This document shows, in pieces, positions 1-33,358 of a DNA stretch of 33,358 nt. The position numbers and the translations under genes are program-made. Source of the stretch: a virus (lineage: Duplodnaviria; Heunggongvirae; Uroviricota; Caudoviricetes). A model generated the notes under the pieces. The model was given only the letters and a program-made list of their open reading frames with translations. It made no database searches and was not told the origin of the DNA. Positions within the stretch are counted from its first letter, which is position 1. Each line of letters starts with the position of its first letter. The stretch is taken from IMG/VR virus record IMGVR_UViG_2740892218_000011; one strand, 5' to 3'.

Positions 1-1002
1 TTACCCTCTATTGTCAAAAGGGTTCAATTCAACTGCAGCCTCTAAATGACCTGGAGCAAAATGCGCATAACGCATAGTCATTTTTATATCGCTATGCCCC
101 AGTATTTTTTGCAACACAAGAATATTTCCTCCCCGCATCATAAAATGACTGGCAAACGTGTGACGTAGCACATGAGTTAATTGCCCATCAGGAAGCTCGA
201 TCTTCGCTCTCTTAATTGCAGCGTCAAAAGCCTCATAACATGGTGAAAATAACGCTCCTCGTTTTTTAGGAAGCATAGCCTGCAATTGAGGTGAAATCGG
301 TACAGTGCGGTTCTTCTTTCCTTTAGTTTTAACAAATGTGATTCGACCGGGCAGCACTTGAGATTGCTTTAATCCTTCAGCTTCACTCCACCGAGCACCA
401 GTCGCAAGCCCAATACGGACAACAACCCCCAAATCTTTATTCCGTGACTCATCACACGCAATCAGAAGGCGTTCAATCTCATCTACATACAGAAACGCCA
501 ATTCCTTTTCTTCCTCACGAAACTTGCGAATGCCAGTCAGGGGGTTTTCACCAGACCACTCCCCAAGGCGCTTCAGTTCGGCAAAAACAGCATGTAGATA
601 TGACTGCTCGCGATTAACGGTTGCTTCACTAAGTTTTTTCTTCCCCTTGGGATTCCATTCTCCTGATAACCTCCTTTCCCGATAAGTAGCAAACATATTT
701 TTGTCAAACTGAGAAGCAAATGGATCTCCCAGCCTGGAACAAATAGACTCAAGTTTGACTTTGCGCTCTGCACCAGAGGACAAGGTTTTACCGTACATCT
801 CAAACCAACGAGCAACCAACTCAGAAAGACGAGGACCAGAACCATCTTGAAACTCGTCTCCAACTCTACTATTCATTAAACGGCGCTCATAAGAGAGCGC
901 CTCACTTTTTGTCGCAAACTGTTTACGAATACGTTTTCCCGATGCCCCGTAAGGATAACATTCGCAAAGCCATTTACCTGATGGAATCTTACGAACCGAC
1001 AT
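1..1002 (-). CDS. int: Tyrosine integrase (P2-like site-specific recombinase)
   Basis: 333 aa ORF; C-terminal catalytic region with HxxR and ...LGHSDIKMTMRYAH motif typical of phage tyrosine integrases; sits at the prophage end adjacent to the repressor operon as in P2. Confidence 0.9.
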   Translation of the reverse strand: MSVRKIPSGKWLCECYPYGASGKRIRKQFATKSEALSYERRLMNSRVGDEFQDGSGPRLSELVARWFEMYGKTLSSGAERKVKLESICSRLGDPFASQFDKNMFATYRERRLSGEWNPKGKKKLSEATVNREQSYLHAVFAELKRLGEWSGENPLTGIRKFREEEKELAFLYVDEIERLLIACDESRNKDLGVVVRIGLATGARWSEAEGLKQSQVLPGRITFVKTKGKKNRTVPISPQLQAMLPKKRGALFSPCYEAFDAAIKRAKIELPDGQLTHVLRHTFASHFMMRGGNILVLQKILGHSDIKMTMRYAHFAPGHLEAAVELNPFDNRG

Positions 1003-2979: not shown

Positions 2980-3330
2980 ATGAAAAAAAACACTAATATT
3001 CCATACTCCAAATTTCGTAATGGCGTAGAACGCCACGCTAACCGTTTCGCTATCAGTACATCACGTAGCAACACTCGCTACAGCCTGAGCGAAACACACG
3101 CTACACCTGATGGCCATCCCGTAAAACAAATTGGTGAACACACCTGGCTGATTGAGAAAGCTGGAATCGTGGTTCACAGATGCCAACGCAACCCATTTAC
3201 CGGAAACCGCATTTTTGCTCTGAGCAACGGCGACAATCAGTTTGGACAGGATTTCACGTTGTACGAAGCTCTGCGCACGGTTGATCGTCTGCTGCGTGGA
3301 CAGAATTTCATTAAACAGGCTGATTTATAA
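2980..3330 (+). CDS. Early-operon hypothetical protein
   Basis: 116 aa ORF, same strand and tight spacing with neighbouring early genes; no recognisable domain. Confidence 0.5.
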   Translation: MKKNTNIPYSKFRNGVERHANRFAISTSRSNTRYSLSETHATPDGHPVKQIGEHTWLIEKAGIVVHRCQRNPFTGNRIFALSNGDNQFGQDFTLYEALRTVDRLLRGQNFIKQADL

Positions 3331-18165: not shown

Positions 18166-18793
18166 GGCATTCACCCGCGCGGATGAAACCTTCGAGGCTA
18201 TCCGCGACAGCCTGAATCAGCAGGCCATCAATAACATCGCCAGAAGGCTGGCACAGGATTTACGCCGCGCCCAGCAGGCGCGCATCCGGTCACAGAAAGC
18301 ACCGGACGGGACCGCATGGACACCACGCAGACGCCGCGTAACCCGGATACAGGAGCGCATTCGCTTTATCTGGAATAACGAAACACGCACGCTGAAAAAC
18401 TGGCATCACGACACAGGGAAATACGGGCGAACTATTACCGGGTGGGATGAGGATAAAAACAATATCCGCACGTTTTACCGGGATGACATCGACCGTTTTC
18501 TGGAAATACGCACCCGGCGTATCAACCAGGACAGCACAAAGCACGTCCCCATGTTCGTAAAACTGCGCACCGCCCGTTACCTGAAAGCCCGCGCGGATGC
18601 CTCCGGTGTGACAGTAGGTTACAGCGGCGTGGCCGCACGTATTGCACGCGTTCATCAGTTCGGTGAACGCGATCAGGTTGCGCCGGGTATTTTCACCGAT
18701 TACCCGGTACGTGAGCTGCTGGGTATCAGTCAGGCGGATGAGCGCCTGATTTATAACACGGTGCTGGGCCGGATTGCGGAGGCAGTACAGTGA
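18158..18793 (+). CDS. S: Tail completion / virion morphogenesis protein S
   Basis: 211 aa; gpS position; longer than P2 S (about 150 aa). Confidence 0.7.
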   Translation: MDKAFTRADETFEAIRDSLNQQAINNIARRLAQDLRRAQQARIRSQKAPDGTAWTPRRRRVTRIQERIRFIWNNETRTLKNWHHDTGKYGRTITGWDEDKNNIRTFYRDDIDRFLEIRTRRINQDSTKHVPMFVKLRTARYLKARADASGVTVGYSGVAARIARVHQFGERDQVAPGIFTDYPVRELLGISQADERLIYNTVLGRIAEAVQ

Positions 18794-20618: not shown

Positions 20619-21219
20619 TTCACTGTTACCGCCATCAGCCAGCAGTTTCATGCGTTGTGCCGAAGCCGTTGGAACGCGCATTACAGACATTCCGGTAGAC
20701 CTCAACACGCTGTGGTCGCCGGATACCTGCCCGGTGCATCTGCTGCCTTATCTCGCCTGGGCGTTTTCCGTTGACCGCTGGGACCGCAACTGGCCGGAGG
20801 AAACAAAGCGCCAGGTGATTCGCGATGCGTGGCTGATACACCGACACAAGGGGACCATCAGCGCACTGCGAAGAGCCGTGGAGCCTCTCGGCTACCTGAT
20901 TGAAGTAAAGGAGTGGTGGCAACTCAACGAGGAGCCAGGAACATTTCGCATTGTTGTCGGAGTACTTGATCAGGGCATCACCGATGAAATGTATCAGGAA
21001 CTTGAGCGCCTTATTGCGGATGCAAAACCGGTAAGTCGCCATCTGACGGGGCTGGCGATCAGCCTGAGTGTGCACGGAAAGATTTTCGTTGGTACGGGAT
21101 GCTATCACGGCGATGCCCTGACGGTTTATCCCTACACCCCGGAGTCCATTATTGTCGAAGGGGATTATTTCCCTGCCCCGGCCATTCATTTAATTGATAA
21201 TCTGAGAGTAAACGCATGA
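20611..21219 (+). CDS. I: Baseplate/tail protein I
   Basis: Start at ATG 20611 overlapping the J stop (ATGAGTAA); gpI position. Confidence 0.8.
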   Translation: MSNSLLPPSASSFMRCAEAVGTRITDIPVDLNTLWSPDTCPVHLLPYLAWAFSVDRWDRNWPEETKRQVIRDAWLIHRHKGTISALRRAVEPLGYLIEVKEWWQLNEEPGTFRIVVGVLDQGITDEMYQELERLIADAKPVSRHLTGLAISLSVHGKIFVGTGCYHGDALTVYPYTPESIIVEGDYFPAPAIHLIDNLRVNA

Positions 21220-22715
21220 CAGTGAAATACTACGCTATTCTGACTAATCAGGGCGCAGCACGGCTGGCTAACGCGACGATGCTCGGCAGTAAGCTGAATC
21301 TGACGCAAATGGCCGTTGGTGATGCGAATGGTGTCTTACCGACACCAGACCCGGCACAGACAAAACTGATTAACCAGAAACGCATCGCGCCGCTGAATCT
21401 TCTGAGTGTTGACCCTAACAATCAGAGCCAGATTATTGCGGAGCAAATCATCCCTGAAAACGAGGGCGGATTCTGGATCCGTGAGATTGGACTTTATGAT
21501 GATGAAGGCGTACTCATTGCGGTGGCGAACTGCCCGGAAACGTACAAACCGCAGTTGCAGGAAGGCAGTGGTCGTACCCAGACTATCCGCATGATTCTGG
21601 TTGTCACGAATACCGAAGCTATTACGCTGAAAATCGACCCGTCGGTGGTACTGGCAACCCGTAAATACGTGGATGATGAAGTCCTGGAATTAAGGCTGTA
21701 TGTGGATGACCAGATGAGAAACCACATTGCCGCACAGGATCCTCATACCCAGTATGCACAGAAACATAATCCGACATTTACCGGAGAACCAAAGGCGCCG
21801 ACGCCTGCCGCAGGAAATAACACCACGCGGATTGCGACTACTGCGTTTGTTCAGGCCGCTATTACCGCTCTGATTAACGGTGCGCCAGCCACGCTGGACA
21901 CACTGAAAGAAATTGCCGCAGCCATTAACAATGACCCGAAATTCAGCACCACCATTAACAATGCGCTGGCACTGAAAGCGCCGCTGTCGAGTCCCGCACT
22001 TACCGGAACGCCAACAGCACCTACTGCGGCACAGTCGGTCAACAATACACAAATTGCCACCACGGCTTTTGTGAAATCAGCAATTGCGGCAATGGTGGGT
22101 TCTGCCCCTGCGGCACTGGATACACTGAATGAACTGGCGGCGGCGCTGGGGAATGACCCTAACTTTTCAACAACAGTACTTAATGCACTGGCAGGTAAAC
22201 AACCGCTGGACAATACGCTGACTAATTTGAGTGGAAAGGATGTTGCTGGTCTTCTCGCATACCTTGGTTTGGGGGAAGGTTCTGCGTTGCCTGTTGGTGT
22301 AACAGTTCCGTGGCCTTCAGCCACACCTCCAGAGGGCTGGCTAAAATGCAATGGTGCTGCCTTTGATAAGCTGAAGTATCCCAAACTAGCCACAGCGTAC
22401 CCGTCAGGAAAACTGCCTGATTTACGCGGTGAATTTATTCGTGGCTGGGATGATGGGCGTGGTATTGATGCCGGACGTGCTTTATTGAGTATTCAGAGAG
22501 ATGAGGTTAGAAAGCTCGAATTGAAATACTGGGGACCGGCCTCAAACAGTTCACCATCAAAAACATTTGCAATCAGCGACAGTGCAGGAGGCGGGCTGTA
22601 TACAGATGGAATAAGTCAGTCGGGCGGCGGAGTATTTAATGCCTTTAAGATTCCCGGCGGTAGTGAAACACGCCCGCGAAATATTGCATTTAACTATATT
22701 GTGAGAGCTGCATGA
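21216..22715 (+). CDS. H: Tail fiber protein H (constant N-terminus plus currently expressed variable C-terminus)
   Basis: 499 aa; repeated tail-fiber motifs (TAFV...A...AP..LDTL.E.AAA..ND); the last 150 codons or so lie inside the invertible segment. Confidence 0.85.
   Translation: MTVKYYAILTNQGAARLANATMLGSKLNLTQMAVGDANGVLPTPDPAQTKLINQKRIAPLNLLSVDPNNQSQIIAEQIIPENEGGFWIREIGLYDDEGVLIAVANCPETYKPQLQEGSGRTQTIRMILVVTNTEAITLKIDPSVVLATRKYVDDEVLELRLYVDDQMRNHIAAQDPHTQYAQKHNPTFTGEPKAPTPAAGNNTTRIATTAFVQAAITALINGAPATLDTLKEIAAAINNDPKFSTTINNALALKAPLSSPALTGTPTAPTAAQSVNNTQIATTAFVKSAIAAMVGSAPAALDTLNELAAALGNDPNFSTTVLNALAGKQPLDNTLTNLSGKDVAGLLAYLGLGEGSALPVGVTVPWPSATPPEGWLKCNGAAFDKLKYPKLATAYPSGKLPDLRGEFIRGWDDGRGIDAGRALLSIQRDEVRKLELKYWGPASNSSPSKTFAISDSAGGGLYTDGISQSGGGVFNAFKIPGGSETRPRNIAFNYIVRAA
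22252..22277. repeat. Invertase crossover site, left (hix/gix-like)
   Basis: TTCTCGCATACC-TT-GGTTTGGGGGAA inside H; right half-site resembles gix GGTTTTGGATAA. Confidence 0.55.
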
Positions 22716-23317
22716 TGAATAACGCGATATTAAACAATGAGCTTATTGCCGTACAGGAAGGAAACATTATCGTTTACAACTATAACAGTGAGACAAGGGA
22801 ATATATTTCTGCATCAACCGAATTTCTTGCTGTAGGTGTTGGTATTCCGGCGTATTCCTGTTTAGATGCACCTGGCACACATAAAGCTGGTTATGCTATC
22901 TGCCGTTCAGCAGATTTAAACTCATGGGAGTATGTGCCAGACCATCGCGGTGAAACGGTCTATAACACTGAAACAGGAGAAGCAAAAGAAATTACAGTAC
23001 CGGGAGATTATCCTGAAAATACAACCACTCTCGCTCCGTTAACGTCATACGATAAATGGGATGGTGAGAAATGGGTGACCGATACTGAGGCACAGCATAG
23101 CGCCGCAGTCGAAGCGGCAGAAGCACAGCGCCAGTCACTGATTGATGCTGCTATGGCTTCCATCAGTCTGATTCAACTGAAATTGCAGGCCGGACGGAAA
23201 CTGACGCAGGCAGAAACAACCCGACTTAACGCCGTGCTGGATTACACTGACGCGGTGACGGCAACAGATACCAGCACCGCGCCGGATGTCATCTGGCCTG
23301 AACTGCCGGAGGCGTAG
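22712..23317 (+). CDS. G: Tail fiber assembly chaperone G
   Basis: 201 aa; conserved C-terminus (...DVIWPELPEA) shared with the inverted paralog. Confidence 0.8.
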   Translation: MMNNAILNNELIAVQEGNIIVYNYNSETREYISASTEFLAVGVGIPAYSCLDAPGTHKAGYAICRSADLNSWEYVPDHRGETVYNTETGEAKEITVPGDYPENTTTLAPLTSYDKWDGEKWVTDTEAQHSAAVEAAEAQRQSLIDAAMASISLIQLKLQAGRKLTQAETTRLNAVLDYTDAVTATDTSTAPDVIWPELPEA

Positions 23318-23741
23318 GCCATTTAATATCTGGCGCACCGGAAGTATCGACCAGTTCCAGTGCGTCCAGATAATCCAGCCACAGATTATATTGCGCCAGT
23401 TCCTCGCCTTTCAGACGACCAATAGCCGCTTTACCAGGCCATTGTTTACTGTTCATATAATCGTTGGCCTGATTAATTAGTAGCTGTCTTTCTGATTCAG
23501 TAATTTCAATAAGTTCTTCATGCGTAGGGGCAGGAATATCCGCCCACGCGGGCAGCCCATCACCTCCGGCAATACGGATTTTTCCTTGTGGCGGTTCAGC
23601 CATAAATTCACTGATAATATTTTGACTCACCTCCTTAGCATCTGATAAATCCCATCCCTCTGATTTATATTTATCAATCATATCCACAGGGAAAAAAGCA
23701 TTATGCCTTGCGCTATAAACATATTCGTTCATATAAATCAT
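23289..23741 (-). CDS. Alternative tail fiber assembly chaperone (G')
   Basis: 150 aa on the opposite strand; C-terminus (...PDIKWPTPPAVQAR) homologous to G; 3' ends of G and G' overlap convergently. Confidence 0.75.
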   Translation of the reverse strand: MIYMNEYVYSARHNAFFPVDMIDKYKSEGWDLSDAKEVSQNIISEFMAEPPQGKIRIAGGDGLPAWADIPAPTHEELIEITESERQLLINQANDYMNSKQWPGKAAIGRLKGEELAQYNLWLDYLDALELVDTSGAPDIKWPTPPAVQAR

Positions 23742-23752
23742 CCTGAATAAAA

Positions 23753-24163
23753 TTATTCACCAACAGCCCACCAACTGTAAGTCATTGACACCTTGTCGCT
23801 GGTTGATGCAGTTCTGTAAGCAGAATTAAAGCCGGTTAATGTTGGGCCTTCTACGGACATAACGAATCCACGCCCTGCACCAAAAGGCGCACCGCCATCG
23901 CCAGAATGGGTAAGAATGGCGATATCCGCTTTTTTAGGGAAAGGGATAGGAAATGTAATCCTCATTGTTTGCGTCGATAATTTCGGCATAGCCTCACCAC
24001 GACCATATTGCAGGATTTTCCCGTTGGGTAATTTCATCCATCCATCACCACTGGCAAAAGAGGCCATGTCCGGTATCTGATTTTCCCCTGTCCCCACCCC
24101 TCGTTTTGCTGCTTCTCCCAAACCAACGTTTTTAACTTCGAAAACAGAGCTATCTAATAGCAT
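23753..24163 (-). CDS. Alternative tail fiber C-terminal cassette (H'), expressed only after inversion
   Basis: Minus-strand ORF that crosses the right crossover site in the same codon phase as H; shares the GLGE junction with H. Confidence 0.7.
   Translation of the reverse strand: MLLDSSVFEVKNVGLGEAAKRGVGTGENQIPDMASFASGDGWMKLPNGKILQYGRGEAMPKLSTQTMRITFPIPFPKKADIAILTHSGDGGAPFGAGRGFVMSVEGPTLTGFNSAYRTASTSDKVSMTYSWWAVGE
24113..24138. repeat. Invertase crossover site, right (inverted copy)
   Basis: Reverse complement reads AAGTTAAAAACG-TT-GGTTTGGGAGAA; matches the left site in 15-16 of 18 core positions. Confidence 0.55.
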
Positions 24164-24182
24164 TTTTACTAACAGAAACAGG

Positions 24183-24791
24183 ATGCTTTTTATGCAAATT
24201 GGCTATATTCGCGTATCAACAAATGACCAGAACACGGATTTGCAACGCAATGCGCTCAATAGCGCAGGATGTGAACTGATTTTTGAAGATAAAATCAGCG
24301 GAACAAAATCAGCCAGACCGGGATTGAAAAAACTGCTCAGAACGTTATCAGCGGGGGATACGCTCGTTGTCTGGAAACTGGACAGGCTGGGCAGAAGCAT
24401 GAAACACCTGATCACACTGATTGAGGAATTGCGGAAAAAAGGTGTCAATTTTCGTAGTCTGACGGATTCAATTGATACCAGCACCCCAATGGGACGATTT
24501 TTCTTCCACGTGATGGGCGCCCTGGCTGAAATGGAACGTGAATTAATTGTAGAGCGTACACTGGCCGGACTGGCAGCAGCCCGCGCACAGGGGCGAATTG
24601 GTGGGCGTCGCCCGAAACTGACAAAAGAGCAACATGAGCAAATAGCGAGGCTGATTAAAAACGGCCACGACAGAAAACAGCTGGCCATAATTTACGACAT
24701 CGGTATATCGACGATTTATCGTTATCACCCTGTAGGTGACACGCAACCCGGAGGAATAATTGAGAATACTCAGGAAACAAAAAACCGCTAA
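24183..24791 (+). CDS. Serine DNA invertase (Hin/Gin/Pin/Cin family)
   Basis: 202 aa; N-terminal catalytic region IGYIRVSTNDQNTDLQ with active-site Ser, resolvase fold motifs (VVWKLDRLGRS), C-terminal HTH. Confidence 0.9.
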   Translation: MLFMQIGYIRVSTNDQNTDLQRNALNSAGCELIFEDKISGTKSARPGLKKLLRTLSAGDTLVVWKLDRLGRSMKHLITLIEELRKKGVNFRSLTDSIDTSTPMGRFFFHVMGALAEMERELIVERTLAGLAAARAQGRIGGRRPKLTKEQHEQIARLIKNGHDRKQLAIIYDIGISTIYRYHPVGDTQPGGIIENTQETKNR

Positions 24792-24811
24792 TCTGAACAT
24801 TAGCGGTTTTT
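24781..24811. terminator. Bidirectional rho-independent terminator between convergent invertase and U genes
   Basis: Perfect hairpin AAAACCGCTAAT-CTGAAC-ATTAGCGGTTTTT, A-tract on one side and T-tract on the other; stem includes the invertase stop codon. Confidence 0.6.
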
Positions 24812-24819
24812 ACGTTAAA

Positions 24820-25308
24820 TCAGAACACCCCTTTAACTGAGCTGACCACATTGTTAAGGGATGATGTCACCTTATCTTTAAGACCGGACAGCATATCACT
24901 GAACGATGAGGATTGCAGGCGCTCCCGCAAATCCTCATCACATCGTTCAAGGGTCAGGGAAAACTCTATCTTTTTCGCTTTCCCGTAGCGATCCAGTTCA
25001 GAGCGGGTCGTGCTCGTTTCAGTCAGAACATACATGCCGTAAATCTGCCCGACGCCATCAATCAGAGGCCACGGGCGTCCCGCATACGCCTGCGTGGTCA
25101 GCAGCGACAGCGACACTTCGCCGCCTGTAATCTCAGGATAAAGCACGCCAGAAAGAACGATGCGATCATCACCTGCACCGATATACTGCCAGCTTGCTGA
25201 ACGGTTAACGCGCTCGTTTTTCACATGTCGCCAGCTTTTGTTTTGCTGTAACTGCTGATGCGGCAATGTGCGCAATTCAAAAACAAACATGCCGTAGATC
25301 ATCATCAT
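24820..25308 (-). CDS. U: Tail protein U
   Basis: 162 aa, gpU family size; last gene of the minus-strand tail block. Confidence 0.8.
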   Translation of the reverse strand: MMMIYGMFVFELRTLPHQQLQQNKSWRHVKNERVNRSASWQYIGAGDDRIVLSGVLYPEITGGEVSLSLLTTQAYAGRPWPLIDGVGQIYGMYVLTETSTTRSELDRYGKAKKIEFSLTLERCDEDLRERLQSSSFSDMLSGLKDKVTSSLNNVVSSVKGVF

Positions 25309-25319
25309 GGCACGACTCC

Positions 25320-28157
25320 TTACTCTTTATCATAAAAGCTTCCACGCCCGGCACGGGTACGCCGCTCCAGTTCTGCCCTGACCATTTCGCCGACCAGTTT
25401 CGCCAGTTCGCGGGGATTCTGCGTAACAACGTTATGCAGATGGACATGAATTTCACCACCAAATCCGGGGGTCGCAGCCTCCCGGCTGCGGGAAGATGCG
25501 GAAACGGGCGCAACTGGCGCACGTGCGGCCTCCACGACCGGACGGGAGCTTGCTGCAACAACAGGGGGCAGCGCCGGAGATAACGGAGCCGGGGGCGCGG
25601 GAGTGATATTGATTGCAGGAAGAGCCTTGTTGCTCTGCGCAACCTTTCGCTCCTGCCACTCCCCACGAACAGCAAGCGCACGGGGCAGGTTCTTAAAGAC
25701 AATATCACCGGGGCCGATACGCTTTTTCGTCTCATCAACCAGCCTGCCTGTGTTATCTGCAATTTTGCTGAGCCTGCGCAGCGTGCCAGTGTTGTTGTCC
25801 GTGAGCGGCTTGTTGTCTTTAGGCTTATCGCCTCCGGTCCCTGTTTCCGCAGATTTCGGCGGATTGATTTTTGCCAGGTCCCCCTGAAGTAAAGCAACCT
25901 TGTCCTGAAGAATGGCCGCACGCTGCGCGTCTTCGATTTTCTTTCTCGCCCTTTCCGCTTCATCTGGAAGGACGCCAAGTTTTTCCAGTATCCATGCCAG
26001 CGTATCCAGCAGCATTTTTGCAGGCGTCAGGACAAGCTGTAACGCACCGCCAAGAACGTTGCCGAACACCTCGCCAGCACTGGTGCATTTATCCAGCGTT
26101 TCCTTGCTGGATTCCATCGGTGACAGCAGCGATGTAAACCAGTTAAAGACCTGAATCACGCCATCACGAACCAGTTCGAAAACAGGGCCAAACCGTTCAA
26201 AGGTTTCGCGTAACGGGGCCAGCCGCTCCATAATCCCGCTGAACACCCCGGCAAAAAATGCCCTGATTGGGTCCCAGTATTTCCAGATGAGAACGGCAGC
26301 TCCGGCAAGCGCAGCTACGATAAGACCGACCGGGCTGAACAACGCCCCGATAGCGCCTCCCAGTAAAGAGACGGAACCCGCCACCATTCCCCACAGCGCT
26401 GGCAGGACCCTGACAGCATTCATTGATCCGGTCAGGAGGGAAAAACCAAGACGCAGTTTTGCCAGCGGGCCAGCAAGCACCCCAAGAGCCAGTGACAACG
26501 AGCCAACCGTTGCAGTCATTGCCAGCAGCGCACCGCCTGCAATCAGTAGCTGGCGCGTCAGTGCCGGATGGGCCTGCGCCAGCTCCGTCACCTTTGAGAC
26601 CACCCGAGTGAGCCACTGCGTGACAGAGCGCAGCGGACCGTCAATCAGATCCGCAATGCGGATACGCAGCCCCTCCCATGCACTGCCGAGTGATTTCAGG
26701 TCGCCATCAAGGTTATTGGCCATAACCTTTGCCGTGCGTTCAGCCTCACCGCGTGCGCCTTCAAGTTCTTTTCTCAGTTTGGGCAGAGAACCGTCACCTG
26801 CCGCATCAACGAGAGCCATAAATGACGTGAAGGCCTCTTCTCCGGCTATGTCCTTAAAGAACGATACCCGGTCAACTTCCCCGTATTTGCGGGTGGCTTT
26901 ATAAAGGTCGGCCAGCACATCCTCCATCGGGCGCATTTTGCCGTTCGCATCAGAGACAGCCACACCAAGCTCTTTCAGCGCCTCTGCTGCCGCCTTTGGC
27001 GGTGATGCCAGACGAGCAAGGCTGGCACGCATTGCCGTCCCGGCATCACTCCCTCTGATACCCATATTCGCCAGCACGCCCGCCATCGCTGCGGCCTGCT
27101 CCAGCGATATTCCCAGCTTACCCGCCACCGGACCTGCATATTTCATGGTTTCGCCCAGCGCGCGAAGGTCGGTGTTAGTACGGGTAAACGCCGCAGTAAG
27201 TGTGTCGCCGACCCGGTCCATCTGGTCAGCAGAGAGGCCGAACTGCGTCAGGATATTTGAGCCAATATCCGCCGTCTCGCCAAGGTCCATACCGCCAGCC
27301 GTTGCCATGCTCAGCACGCCGGGAAGCGCAGCCTGAATGGCTTCTGGTGTGAAGCCAGCCATAGCAAGAAATGCCTGCCCACTGGCGGCATCACTCGCAG
27401 TAAACTGCGTTTCAGAGCCGAGCTTTAGCGCCTGCTCACGCAGCGCCTTAAACTGCGGGCTGTTCTGGTCAATTCGCGTCAGCGCCTGCACACGGGACAT
27501 CTCTTTCCCGAATCCGATAGCGGGCTGCAAAAAACGCCCGGCAGCATAGCCGCCAGCCGCTGCCGCACCAGTTGCCAGCGCACCACCCGTTTTCAGTTTT
27601 CCCGCTGTTTCCTGCGCGCGTGAATACTGCTCACGCGCCCGCGTTACACGCGCAAGCGCCTGTCGTTCGCGTTCAAGCTGGTTGTTGTACTGTTCGGTGC
27701 GTCTGATGGCCTGCTGGATGGTGTTATCGCTGCCTGTCAGGGAAATACCGTGGCGTTTAAGCTCTCCGCCAAGCTCCCGCATTTTCTGAATTTCCCGTGT
27801 GCGCGATTCATTCAGGCGTTCAAGCCGGGTGCTTAACTGCTGCATCAGCTTTTGTTGTTTTTCGCTGAGCACCGTACCCGTGCGTTGTAACTGATGAAGG
27901 GCGTTAAGCTGGCGTCGTGCTTTCACGATGCCAGCATCCGCTTTACTGACAGCATCGCGGGCGCGCTCAAATGAACGCGCCTGACGCTCGAGATTTTTGA
28001 TCGCCCCCTGCGTTCGCTGGATGGAGTCACCAAGCTGTCCCATCAGGCGGCGGGCGTTTTCGGCTGGCCGGGTCAGCCTGTCAACAGCACTGAAGGCGAC
28101 CCGAATGTCAAGAGTCTTCATCGTCTGCATTCCCACTGCGAAGTGCCGCCCGCTCAC
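25320..28157 (-). CDS. T: Tail tape measure protein T
   Basis: 945 aa; Ala/Gly-rich with coiled-coil N-terminal third and hydrophobic central segments typical of tape measure proteins. Confidence 0.85.
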   Translation of the reverse strand: MSGRHFAVGMQTMKTLDIRVAFSAVDRLTRPAENARRLMGQLGDSIQRTQGAIKNLERQARSFERARDAVSKADAGIVKARRQLNALHQLQRTGTVLSEKQQKLMQQLSTRLERLNESRTREIQKMRELGGELKRHGISLTGSDNTIQQAIRRTEQYNNQLERERQALARVTRAREQYSRAQETAGKLKTGGALATGAAAAGGYAAGRFLQPAIGFGKEMSRVQALTRIDQNSPQFKALREQALKLGSETQFTASDAASGQAFLAMAGFTPEAIQAALPGVLSMATAGGMDLGETADIGSNILTQFGLSADQMDRVGDTLTAAFTRTNTDLRALGETMKYAGPVAGKLGISLEQAAAMAGVLANMGIRGSDAGTAMRASLARLASPPKAAAEALKELGVAVSDANGKMRPMEDVLADLYKATRKYGEVDRVSFFKDIAGEEAFTSFMALVDAAGDGSLPKLRKELEGARGEAERTAKVMANNLDGDLKSLGSAWEGLRIRIADLIDGPLRSVTQWLTRVVSKVTELAQAHPALTRQLLIAGGALLAMTATVGSLSLALGVLAGPLAKLRLGFSLLTGSMNAVRVLPALWGMVAGSVSLLGGAIGALFSPVGLIVAALAGAAVLIWKYWDPIRAFFAGVFSGIMERLAPLRETFERFGPVFELVRDGVIQVFNWFTSLLSPMESSKETLDKCTSAGEVFGNVLGGALQLVLTPAKMLLDTLAWILEKLGVLPDEAERARKKIEDAQRAAILQDKVALLQGDLAKINPPKSAETGTGGDKPKDNKPLTDNNTGTLRRLSKIADNTGRLVDETKKRIGPGDIVFKNLPRALAVRGEWQERKVAQSNKALPAINITPAPPAPLSPALPPVVAASSRPVVEAARAPVAPVSASSRSREAATPGFGGEIHVHLHNVVTQNPRELAKLVGEMVRAELERRTRAGRGSFYDKE

Positions 28158-28326
28158 GCCAGCTAACCACTTCGCCGGGCGTCATCATGAAGATTTCGGC
28201 GGGCGACCAGTTAAAAATAACGGCAATATCTGCCACAAAGTCTTCTATGTGCTCAAAGCACACAACCGTGATCAGGCTTCCGTCGCCTGTTCGTTCTTCC
28301 CGCCAGAGTCCGCACCGCTCAAAAAA
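28108..28326 (-). CDS. E' extension of the tail assembly chaperone (made as E+E' by -1 frameshift)
   Basis: -1 frame relative to E starting at the slippery site; overlaps the start of T as in P2. Confidence 0.7.
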   Translation of the reverse strand, partial: FFERCGLWREERTGDGSLITVVCFEHIEDFVADIAVIFNWSPAEIFMMTPGEVVSWRERAALRSGNADDEDS

Positions 28327-28640
28327 TTTACGGCAACCACACATAACTGAATAAAGTCACGGGATGCCATTTTTTTGATCGTCACTTCATCCAGTCGCGG
28401 TGATGTCACGCGTGACAACAGCGTAAACATGGATTCCGCTTTCAGATTCAGCACATCAGACAGCGACAGACCACGCAGGGATCCAGCCTGCTCAATAGCC
28501 CCGGTAATCTCCACATACGTGATTTTTTCGTCGCCTCGCTCAATTGGCTGGGTAAGTTTTACGCCGCGCTCGCCGGTTTCTTTCGCAGTATCAGCAACCA
28601 CCACAGCGTTTTCAGTATTGGTATTTTTCGTCTCTTTCAT
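28272..28640 (-). CDS. E: Tail assembly chaperone E
   Basis: 122 aa; position between FII and T; contains the slippery heptamer near its 3' end. Confidence 0.8.
   Translation of the reverse strand: MKETKNTNTENAVVVADTAKETGERGVKLTQPIERGDEKITYVEITGAIEQAGSLRGLSLSDVLNLKAESMFTLLSRVTSPRLDEVTIKKMASRDFIQLCVVAVNFLSGADSGGKNEQATEA
28320..28326 (-). promoter_or_regulatory. Programmed -1 ribosomal frameshift slippery heptamer T_TTT_TTG
   Basis: Minus-strand TTTTTTG phased as X_XXY_YYZ in the E frame (codons AAT-TTT-TTG = N-F-L); the -1 frame continues as E'. Confidence 0.7.
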
Positions 28641-28694
28641 CAGAAAACTCCTTTCAGTCAGAGGCGACGCACTGCGCCGCCTGCATATTACTTA

Positions 28695-29207
28695 TCAGCC
28701 GAGCCCGAGCGCGGAGCGGATGCGGTCGGGTACAATGTCCTTGCCATCCTTCCGGTAGATGTGGTTCACCAGGTCAATTTCCCACACCGGACGATCGTTA
28801 ATACTCAGCTTGTAGTAGGTGTTTTTGACAGCGTAAGTGTGTGACGTGGCTTCGCCCTGTTTGGCCTCCCCCATATCAATTTCCGTCACACGCCCGCGCA
28901 TCTCGATTTCATACAGGTCGCTTTCTGCATCGGTGTAGTATTCACCCGCAAAACGCAGCAGCGTGCCGTCCATTGTTCCGCCATATTTAAGGAACAGCGC
29001 ACGAACGGCGCCACCCATGACAAAACTCGCATCAAGCGCGGAATCGTCCAGGCCGAGGTCGATACTCACCGCCCCCATCATGCCACCACCACGATAGCTG
29101 TCGGTTTTACGCGTCAGTTTAGGCGGGGTGACAGACGTCACCTTACCCACTTCATTTTCACCATCCACAAACAGCGTAAAAAAACGAAGATGTTTTGGTA
29201 CGGCCAT
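28695..29207 (-). CDS. FII: Tail tube protein FII
   Basis: 170 aa, matches P2 FII size; follows the sheath gene. Confidence 0.85.
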   Translation of the reverse strand: MAVPKHLRFFTLFVDGENEVGKVTSVTPPKLTRKTDSYRGGGMMGAVSIDLGLDDSALDASFVMGGAVRALFLKYGGTMDGTLLRFAGEYYTDAESDLYEIEMRGRVTEIDMGEAKQGEATSHTYAVKNTYYKLSINDRPVWEIDLVNHIYRKDGKDIVPDRIRSALGLG

Positions 29208-30391
29208 TAAGCACCTCCAAGCACTGCAAATGCAGGACCAAAGAACTCATCAGTGAACGCCTGGTAAAGCTCCATATCTTCCAGCGGAGGAACGGGCGTA
29301 TATTTATAGCGAATACGCACGCGCCCCTGTCGTAATTCTGTGGTGCTGTTATCCACGATGTCATACCAGCACGATGCGCCAATCAGTTTCCCGGCAGTAA
29401 CCAGCGAATCCAGTTTTGCCCTGATGGCACTGATGACGTCCTTCACGTTCGCGGGCGTTAGTGGACTGTCGATGGTTTCAAACTGCGCTTCCGCAATTGA
29501 ATCAGCCAGCACCTGTGCGGTTCGGGTATACACCTCAAAGATGTAGGCGTTCGTTTCCGGTGTGCGGTTGCCCCAGAAGCGGAACCCGTTGCGGCGAATG
29601 ATGGTTGTGATTTCTTTGTTGTTGAGGCTGTTGGCATCGCTGTCATCAGCCTGCAACGACCAGAACACATGCCTGGACATCCCCAGCACATTTTTAACCG
29701 GAACGTTGGACAGCGATTTGTGCCAGCCCTGTTCATGGTCAATGTACGCACGAAGGCCGCACGCATAGGCTGGCGCGGGGAAAACCTCATTCTCGCCACT
29801 TTTCGGGTTGTAAGCGATGAAGTCCGGCCACAGGAGCATCAGCTCGCGTTCGTTGAATTTTTCACGGTATGCAATGGCTTCAGCCATCGTGTTACAGCCA
29901 TGACAGGAGGCATACACAAACGCGCGCAGTTTACCTGCAATCACGCACAGGGATTTTGTCACCGCCTCCGTGTCCAGCCCCGGCGCGGCCAGAATACGCG
30001 GACGGTATCCGATGCTTTCATCCTGCTCTGCAACAAGCAGCGCATACATCCCCGTATAGCTGCCGTCGGATTCAGAACCACCGATAACCAGTTGATCCTG
30101 TGTTTTTCCGTCTTCTTCTTTGTGTTCAGCCACGCGAACGACGATCACCTTTGTGCTCACCTGGTCTGCAATGGGTTTCAGCGCACGGTACAGCGTCCCC
30201 GTTGTCCCGCATTTTCCCAGCACGTCATTGACGCGGGTCACTAATGCAGGCTTGTTCAGCGGGAACAGCTTCGCGTCCGCATCGTCCGCCGTTGCCACGA
30301 TACCGATAACGCTGGAATCAACGTCGTTAATTGCTGTTACCAGGTCGGTACTTTCCGTAACGCGGGCGCCATGAAAGCGAGTTTCACTCAT
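29207..30391 (-). CDS. FI: Tail sheath protein FI
   Basis: 394 aa, matches P2 FI size; first gene of the minus-strand tail operon. Confidence 0.9.
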   Translation of the reverse strand: MSETRFHGARVTESTDLVTAINDVDSSVIGIVATADDADAKLFPLNKPALVTRVNDVLGKCGTTGTLYRALKPIADQVSTKVIVVRVAEHKEEDGKTQDQLVIGGSESDGSYTGMYALLVAEQDESIGYRPRILAAPGLDTEAVTKSLCVIAGKLRAFVYASCHGCNTMAEAIAYREKFNERELMLLWPDFIAYNPKSGENEVFPAPAYACGLRAYIDHEQGWHKSLSNVPVKNVLGMSRHVFWSLQADDSDANSLNNKEITTIIRRNGFRFWGNRTPETNAYIFEVYTRTAQVLADSIAEAQFETIDSPLTPANVKDVISAIRAKLDSLVTAGKLIGASCWYDIVDNSTTELRQGRVRIRYKYTPVPPLEDMELYQAFTDEFFGPAFAVLGGA

Positions 30392-30467
30392 AGTTCCAGC
30401 CCCTTGTATCCGTTAAATGATTCGGCAACAATCATCACCCACCACGCGCGTAATCTCATCCCTGCGC

Positions 30468-30495
30468 CGTTCTTGCCGCCCGGCGACAACAAAAA
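30468..30495. promoter_or_regulatory. Candidate late-promoter activator motif in the FI/D divergent intergenic region
   Basis: GTTCTTGCCG-N7-ACAACAAAAAG; near-identical bipartite motif with the same 7-nt spacer at 12574-12600; also reads TGC-N12-ACA. Confidence 0.3.
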
Positions 30496-30548
30496 GCAGT
30501 AACCCCGCCCGCACACACATGCGACCATGCTGCACAGGGAGGGAGCCA

Positions 30549-31658
30549 ATGATTGACACCACCATGCAACTGTTCAACCAGAGTACTGACCCCGTGAAGA
30601 TGCCTGATTTTGATATTCTCGCGGAGGGGAAAACGCTGTCCGGTGTGACAGAACGCCTGATGAGCCTGTCACTGACCGACAACCGGGGATTTGAAGCAGA
30701 CCAGCTAACCATCACGCTGGATGATGCTGATGGTCAGTTGCAGTTGCCGCTACGGGGCGCTCGCCTGACGGTTCTCATTGGCTGGAAAGGCGAACCGCTG
30801 ACAGAAAAAGGCACTTACATTGTTGATGAAATTGCTCATGAAGGACCGCCCGACAGACTGACCATTTCAGCCAGAAGCGCAGATTTTCGGGATGAATTTA
30901 ACGTCAAGCGCGAAGTATCCTGGCATGATGTGACCGTTGAACGCGTGGTGTCTGCAATTGCTCACCGATACGGCCTGAAACCGCAAATCAGCGAAATGCT
31001 GATGGATATTGAAATCGACCACGCTGACCAGACCGAAGAAAGCGACATGTCCTTCCTTACACGCATGGCGGAAATGCTGGGCGCAATCACCACGGTAAAA
31101 AGCGGTAATCTGTTATTCATCATGCCAGGTGGTGGCGTGAACGCGCAGGGAAAACCATTACCATCGTTTGCCATCACACGCAGCAGCGGCGATCGCCATC
31201 AGTTTCGCATTGCTGACCGCGAGGCGTATACGGGGGTACGCGCTTACTGGCTTGATCTTAATTACGGGAAAAAGAAAAAAGTCAGCGTGAAACGCCGCAA
31301 ACCGCCAAAACCCAAAAAGGAGAAAAGCAGCAGCCGTGAAGGTGACTATATGGAAGGTGCGGAAGGCAACGTGTTTGTGTTACGCAAGACTTATCAGAAC
31401 GAGCAGGCAGCAAGACGCGCAGCGGCGGCAAAGTGGCAGCAGCTACAACGCGGAGCCGCATCATTCTCCATCACGCTGGCGCGTGGACGCGCAGAACTCT
31501 ACCCCGAAATGCATGGCACGGTAACAGGATTTAAAAGCGAGATTGATAATCAGGACTGGATTATTGCAAAAGCCGAGCACTCCATTGATAACAGCGGCTT
31601 TACCACGCAGCTTGAGCTTGAGGCAAAAATCCAGGAATGGATAGCAGAAACAGAGTGA
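30549..31658 (+). CDS. D: Tail protein D (late control gene D family)
   Basis: Start at ATG 30549 (MIDTTMQLFNQ...) with SD GGAGGGA; 369 aa; gpD family by size and conserved segments. Confidence 0.8.
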   Translation: MIDTTMQLFNQSTDPVKMPDFDILAEGKTLSGVTERLMSLSLTDNRGFEADQLTITLDDADGQLQLPLRGARLTVLIGWKGEPLTEKGTYIVDEIAHEGPPDRLTISARSADFRDEFNVKREVSWHDVTVERVVSAIAHRYGLKPQISEMLMDIEIDHADQTEESDMSFLTRMAEMLGAITTVKSGNLLFIMPGGGVNAQGKPLPSFAITRSSGDRHQFRIADREAYTGVRAYWLDLNYGKKKKVSVKRRKPPKPKKEKSSSREGDYMEGAEGNVFVLRKTYQNEQAARRAAAAKWQQLQRGAASFSITLARGRAELYPEMHGTVTGFKSEIDNQDWIIAKAEHSIDNSGFTTQLELEAKIQEWIAETE

Positions 31659-31700
31659 GCAACTTAGAATAGCGGCAGCACCACGTTAAGGGAGGTCGCT

Positions 31701-31961
31701 ATGTTCCGTTGTCCGCTTTGTGGCGCATCTGCCCGAATCCGCACCAGTCGTTCGGAAAATGATTCAGATACCGTACGGAAAAAATATTACCAGTGTAACA
31801 ACCTGGAATGCGGCGTATGCTTCTCAACACTGGAGGCTTTCCATAAATTCACATCGAAACACGCCCCCGGCGTTCACTCTTCAGAGGGCATCCCGTGGAA
31901 TGAGCTACCAGCTTCGCACAGGGGAAACAACCAGATGAGTTTGCCATTACCTCAGAATTAA
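31701..31961 (+). CDS. ogr: Ogr/Delta-type zinc-finger late transcription activator
   Basis: 86 aa; N-terminus MFRCPLCGASARIRTSR...YYQCNNLECGVCF with the four-Cys arrangement of P2 Ogr (MFHCPLC...HQCQNVNCSATF, recalled); terminal prophage position. Confidence 0.8.
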   Translation: MFRCPLCGASARIRTSRSENDSDTVRKKYYQCNNLECGVCFSTLEAFHKFTSKHAPGVHSSEGIPWNELPASHRGNNQMSLPLPQN

Positions 31962-32021
31962 CAGGCTGAATTGCCGGAGTAACAAAAAAGCGATAGATTA
32001 CGCGCGGGTGCCTTTCGGCTG

Positions 32022-32234
32022 ATGGCTGGAGGGAATACCCGAAGGCCGGATGTGGAAAGGCCCCGGAAAACATCTCTGTTTAACCGAGGCCCTGACCATC
32101 TAACCTTAGCAAGTGATAGGTTAGCGCCTCCCCAAAAAAGGAGCAAGCGCTATGTCGCAAAAATCGCTTATGGCCATCACGTTCTGCGTGACGGTAATCC
32201 TCATCATCTGGATGCTGCACGGTTCGCTGTGTGA
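32022..32234 (+). CDS. mok: mok-like overlapping reading frame of the hok locus
   Basis: 70 aa ORF overlapping hok in another frame, as in hok/mok/sok loci. Confidence 0.4.
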   Translation: MAGGNTRRPDVERPRKTSLFNRGPDHLTLASDRLAPPQKRSKRYVAKIAYGHHVLRDGNPHHLDAARFAV

Positions 32235-32292
32235 AATACGGATGAGCTTCTGGGGAGCGGAGTTTGCGGCGTTCTTACAGTGTAAGCAGTAA
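32152..32292 (+). CDS. hok: Hok/Gef family type I toxin
   Basis: 46 aa MSQKSLMAITFCVTVILIIWMLHGSLCEIRMSFWGAEFAAFLQCKQ: N-terminal TM then SLCEIR...G..E.AAF, matching the Hok signature; below the ORF-track cutoff. Confidence 0.7.
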   Translation: MSQKSLMAITFCVTVILIIWMLHGSLCEIRMSFWGAEFAAFLQCKQ

Positions 32293-32378
32293 GGAAACCG
32301 CGACGGGGGAGCAATCCCCCGTCAATCGGTTGCTAAGGCTGGCCGAAGTGGCACCCTATCCCATGGACACAAACAAGA

Positions 32379-32413
32379 AAACCCGCAGCGTAAAAACTGC
32401 GGGTTTTCTTTTG
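32379..32413 (+). terminator. Rho-independent terminator of the hok transcript
   Basis: AAAACCCGCAG-CGTAAAAA-CTGCGGGTTTTCTTTT. Confidence 0.5.
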
Positions 32414-32483
32414 GAGCTCTCACTTAGCTAAGGTACCGTTAACAACACACATAATGCTCGCAAAACAAACCAGTTAAAAGTGA

Positions 32484-32765
32484 TTACTCAGCATTCTCCT
32501 GCTTCCATTGCCGGATCATTTCATCCGTAACATCACTCTCATAACATACCACGTCATACCCTCCAGTACGGCTATATGCACTGCGTCTACCACATCTACT
32601 ACCATTCCTTGCATGATTATAAGGACACGCACAATTGCCTGGATACGATTCAATGGATTCTTTAATTATTTCTTTCTTGATCTGAGCATCAGACTTTCCT
32701 GTTGCTGCATACCCACTAAAAGATACCAAACAAAAACAGATTGCCATTAATAAACCACATCGCAT
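32484..32765 (-). CDS. Small secreted Cys-rich protein of unknown function
   Basis: Start at the internal Met (MRCGLLMAICFCLVSFSGYAATG signal peptide); mature part has several Cys and motif CACPYNHARNGSRCGRRSAYSRTGGY; region looks AT-rich. Confidence 0.5.
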   Translation of the reverse strand: MRCGLLMAICFCLVSFSGYAATGKSDAQIKKEIIKESIESYPGNCACPYNHARNGSRCGRRSAYSRTGGYDVVCYESDVTDEMIRQWKQENAE

Positions 32766-33019
32766 ACCGATACACTCTATTACTAACCAATCATAACCCA
32801 CATCATAAAATCGAGATGTGGAGTACAACACCTTTAACAAGAAGGTGTCATAACGATAATATGCCGTGCAATTCATCAAAAAAAAGATCTATATCAAAGA
32901 GATAGAGCTCTTATCAGTGCTGCAGACATCGGCATTCGAGGCAGCAGAAAAACAGTAAATCTGACGAATTTGCCTTTTCTCAGGATGTTGTCAGATTAAA
33001 AAAGACAGATTAGCGCAGG

Positions 33020-33180
33020 TACCTTTTGGTGGATGGCAGGAGGAAAAATGAAGTCGAGTGGAAAAATCCCAGAAAAATTTTTGTTTAACCGAGGTCCTAG
33101 TTCACTATGCGAAATACGGAGGAGCTGCAGGAGAATTCGGCTTCATCCTTAGAGTTTAAACAGCACGTGCACTACTATTG
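33020..33180 (+). pseudogene. Degenerate hok-like locus (leader and 3' end retained, TM-coding middle deleted)
   Basis: 33020-33100 is about 70% identical to the hok leader at 32010-32100; GAAATACGGAGGAGCTGCAGGAGAATTCGGC matches the hok 3' region, but about 125 bp between them is missing. Confidence 0.35.
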
Positions 33181-33234
33181 TTTCTGCATATCGCCACACC
33201 ATCGCCACTCCACCGCCATTGCACAAAATACAAA

Positions 33235-33260
33235 TACAAAAAAACCACCCGAAGGTGGTT
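33235..33260 (-). terminator. Terminator hairpin downstream of the tRNA (minus strand)
   Basis: ACCACCC-GAA-GGTGGT stem flanked by an A-run (plus) / T-run (minus), about 45 nt beyond the tRNA 3' end. Confidence 0.4.
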
Positions 33261-33304
33261 TCACGACACTGCTTATTGCTTTGATTTTATTCTTATCTTT
33301 CCCA

Positions 33305-33358
33305 TGGTACCCGGAGCGGGACTTGAACCCGCACAGCGCGAACGCCGAGGGATTTTAA
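33305..33358 (-). tRNA. leuZ: tRNA-Leu(UAA), 3' portion only (truncated by window end)
   Basis: Minus strand reads ...TTAAAATCCCTCGGCGTTCGCGCTGTGCGGGTTCAAGTCCCGCTCCGGGTACCA: T-arm GGTTCAAGTCC, long variable arm, terminal CCA, UAA anticodon at the window edge; matches E. coli leuZ from memory. Confidence 0.75.

Follow-up and report, generated by a model that had tools for sequence, protein, structure and literature searches.

In phage P2, the genes FI-FII-E-E'-T-U-D-ogr are all found on one strand. The late promoters of P2 share the consensus TGT-N12-ACA and are Ogr-dependent (PMC3931495). In the P2-like Stenotrophomonas phage Smp131 the late operons have exchanged members by rearrangement and the TGT-N12-ACA promoters have been kept, one site being read in both directions for pP'/pO' (PMC3931495). 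In Burkholderia phage KS5, U and D are adjacent on one strand (table in PMC3091744). We analysed the tail module of the IMG/VR virus record IMGVR_UViG_2740892218_000011 (33,358 nucleotides; this whole stretch is referred to as the window), a complete P2-like prophage (Peduoviridae) belonging to the P88 group. Its U, T, E/E', FII and FI genes (24820-30391) are on the minus strand, and V-G, D and ogr are on the plus strand. The inverted order is the norm for this P2-like lineage, and is ordinary rather than specific to the prophage. As a whole it is best explained, with a probability of roughly 0.75 in our estimate, by a single ancient inversion which became fixed, was independent of the neighbouring DNA invertase, and left one dyad-symmetric activator site driving FI and D divergently. 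The rearrangement is a different one from that of Smp131, in which V and W have moved and which belongs to phages of a different host group.

The genes of the block, its two junctions and the genes to its right are the following:

24780-24811, both strands: predicted two-way intrinsic terminator between the convergent invertase and U genes (terminator scan and RNA folds)
24820-25308, minus strand: gpU tail protein, last gene of the inverted operon (Pfam Phage_P2_GpU, 5.8e-39; 46% identity to P2 U)
25320-28157, minus strand: gpT tape measure (Pfam PhageMin_Tail, 4.9e-59; 32% identity to P2 T)
28108-28640, minus strand: E+E', the -1 frameshift product predicted from translation (177 aa, ends at 28108)
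28272-28640, minus strand: gpE (33% identity to P2 E by BLASTP)
28695-29207, minus strand: gpFII tail tube (Pfam Phage_tube, 1.8e-45; 41% identity to P2 FII)
29207-30391, minus strand: gpFI tail sheath, first gene of the inverted operon (Pfam sheath domains; 45% identity to P2 FI)
30549-31658 (ORF from 30417), plus strand: gpD tail/baseplate hub (Pfam Phage_GPD; 50% identity to P2 D)
31701-31961, plus strand: ogr, Ogr/Delta-type zinc-finger late activator (Pfam Ogr_Delta, 2.4e-14; CX2C-X24-CX4C in the translation)

The canonical P2 order, in which FI to U and D are contiguous on the V-G strand, is not found in the window. The reversal of the FI-to-U block relative to P2, and the gene identities, had been proposed in a first-pass annotation of this DNA, and both Pfam and the comparison with P2 agree with them. 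The E ORF (28272-28640) has no Pfam match; a GpE-family ORF is annotated at the E position in P88 and in the prophage of E. coli RM9088. The same ORF contains the P2-type slippery heptamer T_TTT_TTG (28326-28320) near its 3' end, together with an open -1 frame, and a -1 shift at this heptamer would give E+E'; the segment thus has the features of a P2-type programmed -1 frameshift. The start of T is GTG 28157 in the mechanical ORF, and an ATG equivalent to 28121 in the PGAP annotation of the near-identical RM9088 prophage.

The size of the FI/D gap depends on the start of D: it is 157 bp (30392-30548) with ATG 30549, and would be only 25 bp if the ORF start at 30417 were used instead. A Shine-Dalgarno sequence (GGGAGGGAG) is located just upstream of ATG 30549, P2 gpD aligns with the longer ORF from its residue 63 onwards only, and 37 relatives share the ATG column in an alignment of the gap. 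Therefore, ATG 30549 is taken as the start of D, and with this start FI and D diverge from a 157-bp gap, as first described. At the opposite junction, the hairpin 24780-24811 consists of a perfect 13-bp stem with an A run upstream and a T run downstream, and the invertase stop codon falls within the stem. The RNA fold is at -15.6 kcal/mol on the plus strand (z-score against shuffles -5.0) and at -18.4 kcal/mol on the minus strand (z-score -6.7). It has the hallmarks of an intrinsic (rho-independent) terminator on both strands and is predicted to act as one, which supports the bidirectional terminator that had been noticed at the invertase/U junction.

The distribution of the gene order was studied at three levels. 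Concerning phages, a megablast of window positions 21000-33358 against a phage collection matched P88, P884B11, Shae_phiSM, 520873, Chuche, PhiR44_2, 503458 and 500465-2 in one collinear piece each (90-93% identity), and these matches span the invertase and U to FI, and extend into D and ogr (24198-32412). P88 (Xuanwuvirus) and 500465-2 (Gemsvirus) are ~91% identical to the window at the nucleotide level and carry invertase-U-T-E-FII-FI collinearly in reverse, followed by D and ogr; the annotated strands, the FI/D gap and the dyad are as in the window. Their tail-fibre/invertible region is mosaic relative to the window (H 44-80% identical). P88 is an inducible, lytic-competent, plaque-forming phage (PMC5285337), and PhiSM is also inducible and plaque-forming (PMC6456863). 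The closest genome match is the RM9088 prophage, with 99.2% identity over the FI|D junction. Both this prophage and 500465-2 contain an extra gene between D and ogr, unlike the window, in which ogr lies 42 bp downstream of D. The D-ogr gap is a cargo insertion spot in these close relatives: a 1023-nt minus-strand gene is found there in 500465-2 (L002 13742-14764) and a DUF2971 gene in the RM9088 prophage (L055 21773-22558). In RM9088 the annotated D begins only at an internal start, and a pseudogene fragment precedes it.

Concerning other bacteria, the D protein was searched against one genome per bacterial species, which gave 47 loci from ~25 enterobacterial genera (D 65-97% identical). Forty-three of these were informative, i.e. 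contained enough sequence to judge the order, and in all 43 tblastn with the window proteins found U, T, E, FII and FI on the minus strand followed by D and ogr on the plus strand. The same inverted order is seen in three further phage genera: Senquatrovirus (SEN4; D 64% identical, inverted block, no invertase), Reginaelenavirus (Kp4871-3) and Reipivirus (Kp4849-1). It is therefore found in five Peduoviridae genera (Xuanwuvirus, Gemsvirus, Senquatrovirus, Reginaelenavirus and Reipivirus). The canonical order is present in the phages with D <=53% identical: P2, Cartapus (Elveevirus), RE-2010 (Felsduovirus) and ST11-OXA48phi15.3 (Kapieceevirus). The window has the traits of a P88-like clade: U-T-E-FII-FI convergent with the fibre/invertase region and divergent from D-ogr, with D >~60% identical. 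Concerning E. coli, a 951-bp probe over the FI|D junction was collinear in 1357 of 5426 complete genomes (about a quarter), and a synthetic U-D probe in the P2 order was collinear in none of the 1416 E. coli genomes carrying these genes. The first-pass annotation had presented the block as an unusual arrangement; the synteny comparison shows that this orientation is the normal one for the lineage.

Three of the loci deserve a separate mention. Two contigs assigned to Firmicutes, from Vagococcus sp. WN89Y (L005) and the Planococcaceae metagenome-assembled genome (MAG) UBA3378 (L046), contain this enterobacterial prophage with D 96-98% identical; the assignment probably reflects contamination or mis-binning of the assemblies. 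Trabulsiella odontotermitis (L048, 1180-2948) has a fragmentary D and, unlike every other locus, carries its I and H homologues on the minus strand, beside the invertase. Either the prophage has been rearranged or is decaying, or its baseplate and fibre genes have undergone a larger flip associated with the invertase.

It had been pointed out in the first-pass annotation that D would need its own promoter in this arrangement, and a candidate two-way promoter is predicted in the FI/D gap. Its elements, and a second site of the same form, are the following:

30431-30436, minus strand: predicted -10-like hexamer of the FI promoter, GATGAT (predicted start near 30424)
30469-30490, no strand: 22-bp dyad GTTCT-N12-ACAAC, predicted shared Ogr site ~55 bp upstream of both predicted starts
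30523-30528, plus strand: predicted -10-like hexamer of the D promoter, GACCAT (predicted start near 30535)
12584-12605, no strand: second dyad GTTCT-N12-ACAAC, in the divergent P/O gap, with the flanking hexamers TAATCT and CATCAT; counterpart of the shared pP/pO site of P2

The working form of the dyad is G(T/G)T(C/G)T-N12-ACAAC. A strict TGT-N12-ACA scan gave four matches in the window, none of them at a promoter position, the literal consensus being too narrow. The two sites share the extended motif GTTCT-N12-ACAACAAAA (30469-30494 and 12584-12609), and no further copy within two mismatches was found in the window beyond the FI/D and P/O gaps. The pattern was derived from these two sites themselves; its informative part is the absence elsewhere. 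In the gap alignment of 42 distinct relatives, the right half-site (GACAACAA) hardly varies, as holds also for a set of 37 relatives, the left half reads G(T/G)T(C/G)T and the 12-bp spacer varies. Two conserved blocks flank the dyad, and the D-side hexamer sits in the conserved CGCGCGCATGAAACTAT block. A weight matrix trained on the FI/D sites only has the FI/D dyad as its top match in the window. The same matrix places the P/O gap next-best in the window, P88, RM9088, Kp4871-3 and Kp4849-1, and top in SEN4, which is independent support for one regulator shared by the two gaps.

The spacing of the elements is strict. The FI-side hexamer (A2 and T6 kept) is located exactly 32 bp left of the dyad in 41/41 relatives, and the D-side hexamer (A2 and T6 invariant) 32 bp right of it in 38 of 41 and 33 bp in 3, whereas the distances from hexamer to start codon vary (FI 29-39 bp, D 13-22 bp). 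The P2 activator sites have the same form as the window dyad (pF: GTTGT-N12-CCAAC, pP/pO: GTTGT-N12-CCATC). Like the window, the pP/pO region has one 22-bp dyad (GTTGT-N12-(A/C)CA(A/T)C) with -10-like hexamers 32 bp on each side, between divergent operons. When the same layout rule is applied to P2, it picks the hexamers TAGCCT and GAAACT round pP/pO and predicts starts at 3016 and 3127, which are those annotated in NC_001895; for pF it gives 17626, also as annotated. The window differs from P2 in that the predicted architecture is present also between FI and D, where P2 has the one-way pF. In four canonical-order phages the pF dyad has no A2/T6 hexamer on its far side, and the D-side hexamer is therefore specific to the inverted clade.

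The FI/D gap has the sequence traits of an Ogr/Delta-type late promoter (a TGT-N12-ACA-type dyad ~55 bp upstream, a weak -10 and no -35), as well as those of a two-way promoter of the pP/pO type (one dyad, -10 elements equidistant on both sides, divergent operons). From this geometry and the analogy with P2, Ogr is predicted to bind at 30469-30490, with starts at ~30424 and ~30535, and this one site probably drives FI and D divergently. The FI/D promoter would then be a new location for a known pP/pO-type element. No paper describing such a two-way promoter between FI and D, or this arrangement, was found in the open-access literature.

Some further observations concern the late promoters. S and V overlap at 18790-18793 and have no separate pV promoter region, unlike P2; in SEN4, unlike in the window, the S-V gap contains a dyad (ATTGT-N12-ACAAT, at 9261). 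With only two activator dyads in the genome, a single very long late transcript from O to G is implied. In the O ORF, the first ATG (12643) overlaps the predicted -10 of the O promoter; ATG 12677, which follows GAGGGG, is the more likely O start and agrees with the one annotated in P88 and RM9088.

The window shares with the P2 F operon the gene set, the internal order FI to U, the E/E' -1 frameshift on TTTTTTG, a dyad-type late promoter upstream of FI and the adjacency of D and ogr. It differs in that pF and FI to U are inverted relative to D, ogr and the V-G operon, so that D is outside the F operon, and the proteins are 32-50% identical. We infer that the pF promoter together with FI-FII-E/E'-T-U was inverted once, long ago, in the common ancestor of the P88 group, and that D and ogr retained their original orientation. 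The inverted order is most likely the derived state: the canonical order is found in all more distant relatives examined, and Mu and the R-type pyocins have it too. The inversion would have placed the dyad-symmetric Ogr site of pF beside D, leaving a single dyad ~55 bp upstream of two divergent, weak, activator-dependent promoters. One of these would drive FI through U, ending at the two-way terminator 24780-24811; the other would drive D, and probably ogr by read-through. As the terminator scan detected no terminator between D and ogr, the two genes may be co-transcribed, and this, if true, would preserve the late read-through into ogr that is known in P2. On balance, though with some reserve, we favour the view that the one-way pF became two-way when a -10 element was gained 32 bp on the other side of the Ogr dyad and was co-opted for the orphaned D (and ogr).

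Several points weigh against this account. Promoter function, Ogr dependence and the starts are read from sequence geometry and from the P2 analogy, and the derived rather than ancestral direction leans on outgroups and on the Mu and pyocin orders. In the window the left half-site, GTTCT, does not form a perfect dyad with ACAAC. Counts of the 41/41 type are not independent, the relatives being of common ancestry, although the spacers and the other hexamer positions do vary. Also, the predicted D leader is very short (~14 nt) and begins just before the Shine-Dalgarno sequence, and the conserved CGCGCGCG block beside the D-side hexamer could have another role.

The last two points also fit an explanation in which the inversion is ancient but the dyad drives FI only, and D either has an Ogr-independent promoter or is preceded by a block which is the site of another regulator or an mRNA leader element. 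The D-side hexamer of the window (GACCAT) is weak, the GC-rich conserved block has no established role, and ogr of P2 has its own constitutive-type promoter, so the region is not wholly Ogr-dependent. We consider this explanation improbable, although it survives best among the alternatives. It leaves aside the strict spacing between hexamer and dyad in the 41 relatives, against which the start-codon distances drift, the invariant A2 and T6, and a geometry identical to that of the annotated two-way pP/pO of P2. No sigma-70 consensus promoter was found in the FI/D gap, and D is a structural late protein which is needed together with FI through U.

The origin of the block itself could also be different: it may be a foreign module from another contractile-tail phage, inserted backwards. 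P2-like phages are mosaic, and the tail-fibre region of the window has indeed a separate history, being ~91% identical to an O157:H43 P2-like phage in which the rest of the window has no match. The block shows another pattern. The identity to P2 is 45% for FI, 41% for FII, 32% for T and 46% for U, compared with 47% for Q, 44% for P, 42% for N, 45% for V and 50% for D; FI, FII, T and U are in the range of Q, P, N, V, W and D (42-50%), and the overall ranges are 32-46% for the block proteins and 35-61% for the other late proteins. As the block and the other late proteins are equally distant from P2, an inversion in place is indicated rather than an imported module. The FI-U block and D also diverge together across the 43 loci, and the pF-type dyad stays with FI. 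A foreign origin of the block is thus very unlikely.

The serine invertase next to the block had been suggested in the first-pass annotation as a possible agent of a past large inversion. The invertase and the segment to its left comprise the following:

22252-22277, no strand: left crossover site TTCTCGCATACCTTGGTTTGGGGGAA, inside H (inverted repeat with the right site)
23289-23741, minus strand: alternative assembly protein (chaperone), between the crossover sites (Pfam Caudo_TAP)
23753-24163, minus strand: alternative fibre tip, between the crossover sites (Pfam Gp53-like_C)
24113-24138, no strand: right crossover site TTCTCCCAAACCAACGTTTTTAACTT, just upstream of the invertase gene (inverted repeat with the left site)
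24183-24791, plus strand: serine DNA invertase of the Gin/Hin/Cin type (Pfam Resolvase 2.4e-51, HTH_7 1.6e-12)

The gene is annotated as a DNA invertase also in P88 and 500465-2. Of all positions in the window, 22252-22277 best resembles the right-hand site and hixL/gixL (18/26). The segment 22252-24138 (~1.9 kb) has the components of a Gin/Hin-type invertible segment: an invertase, inverted sites, alternative fibre C-termini and chaperones. On these sequence traits, the substrate of the invertase is this tail-fibre segment and not the FI-U block. The arrangement resembles the Gin/Hin/Cin/Pin systems (Mu G segment, P1 C segment and e14 P segment), in which an invertase is likewise found beside a segment (~1.9 kb in the window) with 26-bp inverted sites. 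This likeness extends to 22252-24138 and no further; the 5.6-kb tail block lacks sites of this kind and has a fixed orientation.

An explanation in which the serine invertase made the inversion, or can still make it, the FI-U block being a second large invertible segment, draws on the fact that the gene abuts the block (24183-24791 vs 24820), that this enzyme family flips DNA between inverted sites, and that an active-looking pair of sites is nearby. The search for cryptic crossover sites at the junctions, which had been proposed as a check, returned none at 24.79-24.83 kb or 30.39-30.55 kb when scanned with the window's site and hixL/gixL, and no inverted repeats flanking the block were found beyond chance-level pairs. 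Matches of 16-17/26 elsewhere were rejected as crossover sites, since they are at background level and inside genes (e.g. 30673 in D); the repeat I17 (24875-24892 / 30635-30652, 15/18) was also rejected, being at chance level and within the coding regions of U and D. The block has no 26-bp end sites and shows one orientation among the genomes, the alternative orientation being found in 0/1416 E. coli genomes. It is also present in many relatives which have no invertase (SEN4 and loci L008-L010 and L014-L020), and in Cartapus, which has the canonical order, an invertase of this kind immediately precedes a forward-facing FI. The suggested role of the invertase does not agree with these findings, and we give it hardly any weight.

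Finally, that the orientation is an assembly error of the window, for which the contrast with P2 and nothing further speaks, has a negligible probability: both junctions are spanned collinearly in independently sequenced phage genomes, in the 1357 complete E. coli genomes and in the 43 loci of other genera. Because the junction is collinear across phages and genomes and the U-D junction is found in none, both misassembly and present-day flipping are excluded, and the earlier view of a stable natural arrangement holds.

The remaining parts of the prophage agree with its placement in the Peduoviridae:

1-1002, minus strand: integrase
5028-7823, plus strand: A (replication protein)
9724-12521, minus strand: Q and P
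O through G, ending at 23317, plus strand

All P2 late genes are present (Q P / O N M L / R S V W J I H G / FI FII E T U D), and by BLASTP each late protein pairs with its P2 counterpart (25-61% identity). The Ogr/Delta activator, the P2-type integrase and the A protein also place the window in this family, as do the nearest records, which are classed as Peduoviridae. Between A and Q, at the position of the P2 old/tin cargo slot, 7925-9202 holds a partition pair of plasmid type within this integrating P2-like prophage: a ParM actin-like segregation protein (StbA_N and ParM C-terminal domain, E 7e-82) and, after it, a Plasmid_stab_B protein. P88 has the pair as well. The region adjoining the integrase (1008-2530) has a low GC content (38-44%) and contains three minus-strand ORFs, which encode a DUF2511 protein, a 216-aa protein with no family match and a 159-aa helix-turn-helix protein. 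The last is probably the immunity repressor, and the other two look like cargo. Downstream of ogr, 32152-32292 is a Hok/Gef-type toxin ORF (MSQKSLMAITFCVTVILIIWMLHGSLCEIR...), annotated likewise in P88, 500465-2 and RM9088. A second copy of the hok leader motif (tttgtttaaccgagg) is found at ~33049-33100, ~1 kb beyond the Hok/Gef ORF, and may mark another hok-like locus, whole or as a remnant. At its right end (33300-33358) the window resembles a minus-strand tRNA gene (tggtacccggagcgggacttgaacccgc...) of which the 3' part is included, the gene being truncated by the window edge; ARAGORN reported no tRNA in the window. This tRNA-like end may mark the attachment site or the host flank.

The gene order described here is visible in the published annotated genomes of P88, SEN4 and others. 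No published description of the inversion was found in the open-access literature, which is weak evidence, and the papers on P88, SEN4, PhiSM and Serratia PP4 are silent on it. The analysis is mainly of value as a correction: the 'inverted' tail module defines a clade by its gene order, and occurs in five or more Peduoviridae genera and in roughly a quarter of the complete E. coli genomes. Being clade-wide, it ought neither to be reported as an anomaly in genome scans nor read as a sign of invertase activity. The layout hexamer-32 bp-22-bp dyad-32 bp-hexamer offers a practical rule for annotating the late promoters and the true D and O starts in these prophages. If the site was indeed co-opted for D, an entire clade of P2-like phages would serve its four late transcription units with just two activator sites, each of them shared (P/O and FI/D). 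A gene which an inversion had cut off from its operon appears to have had its expression rescued by a dyad-symmetric activator site, and this would be of modest interest for phage regulation.

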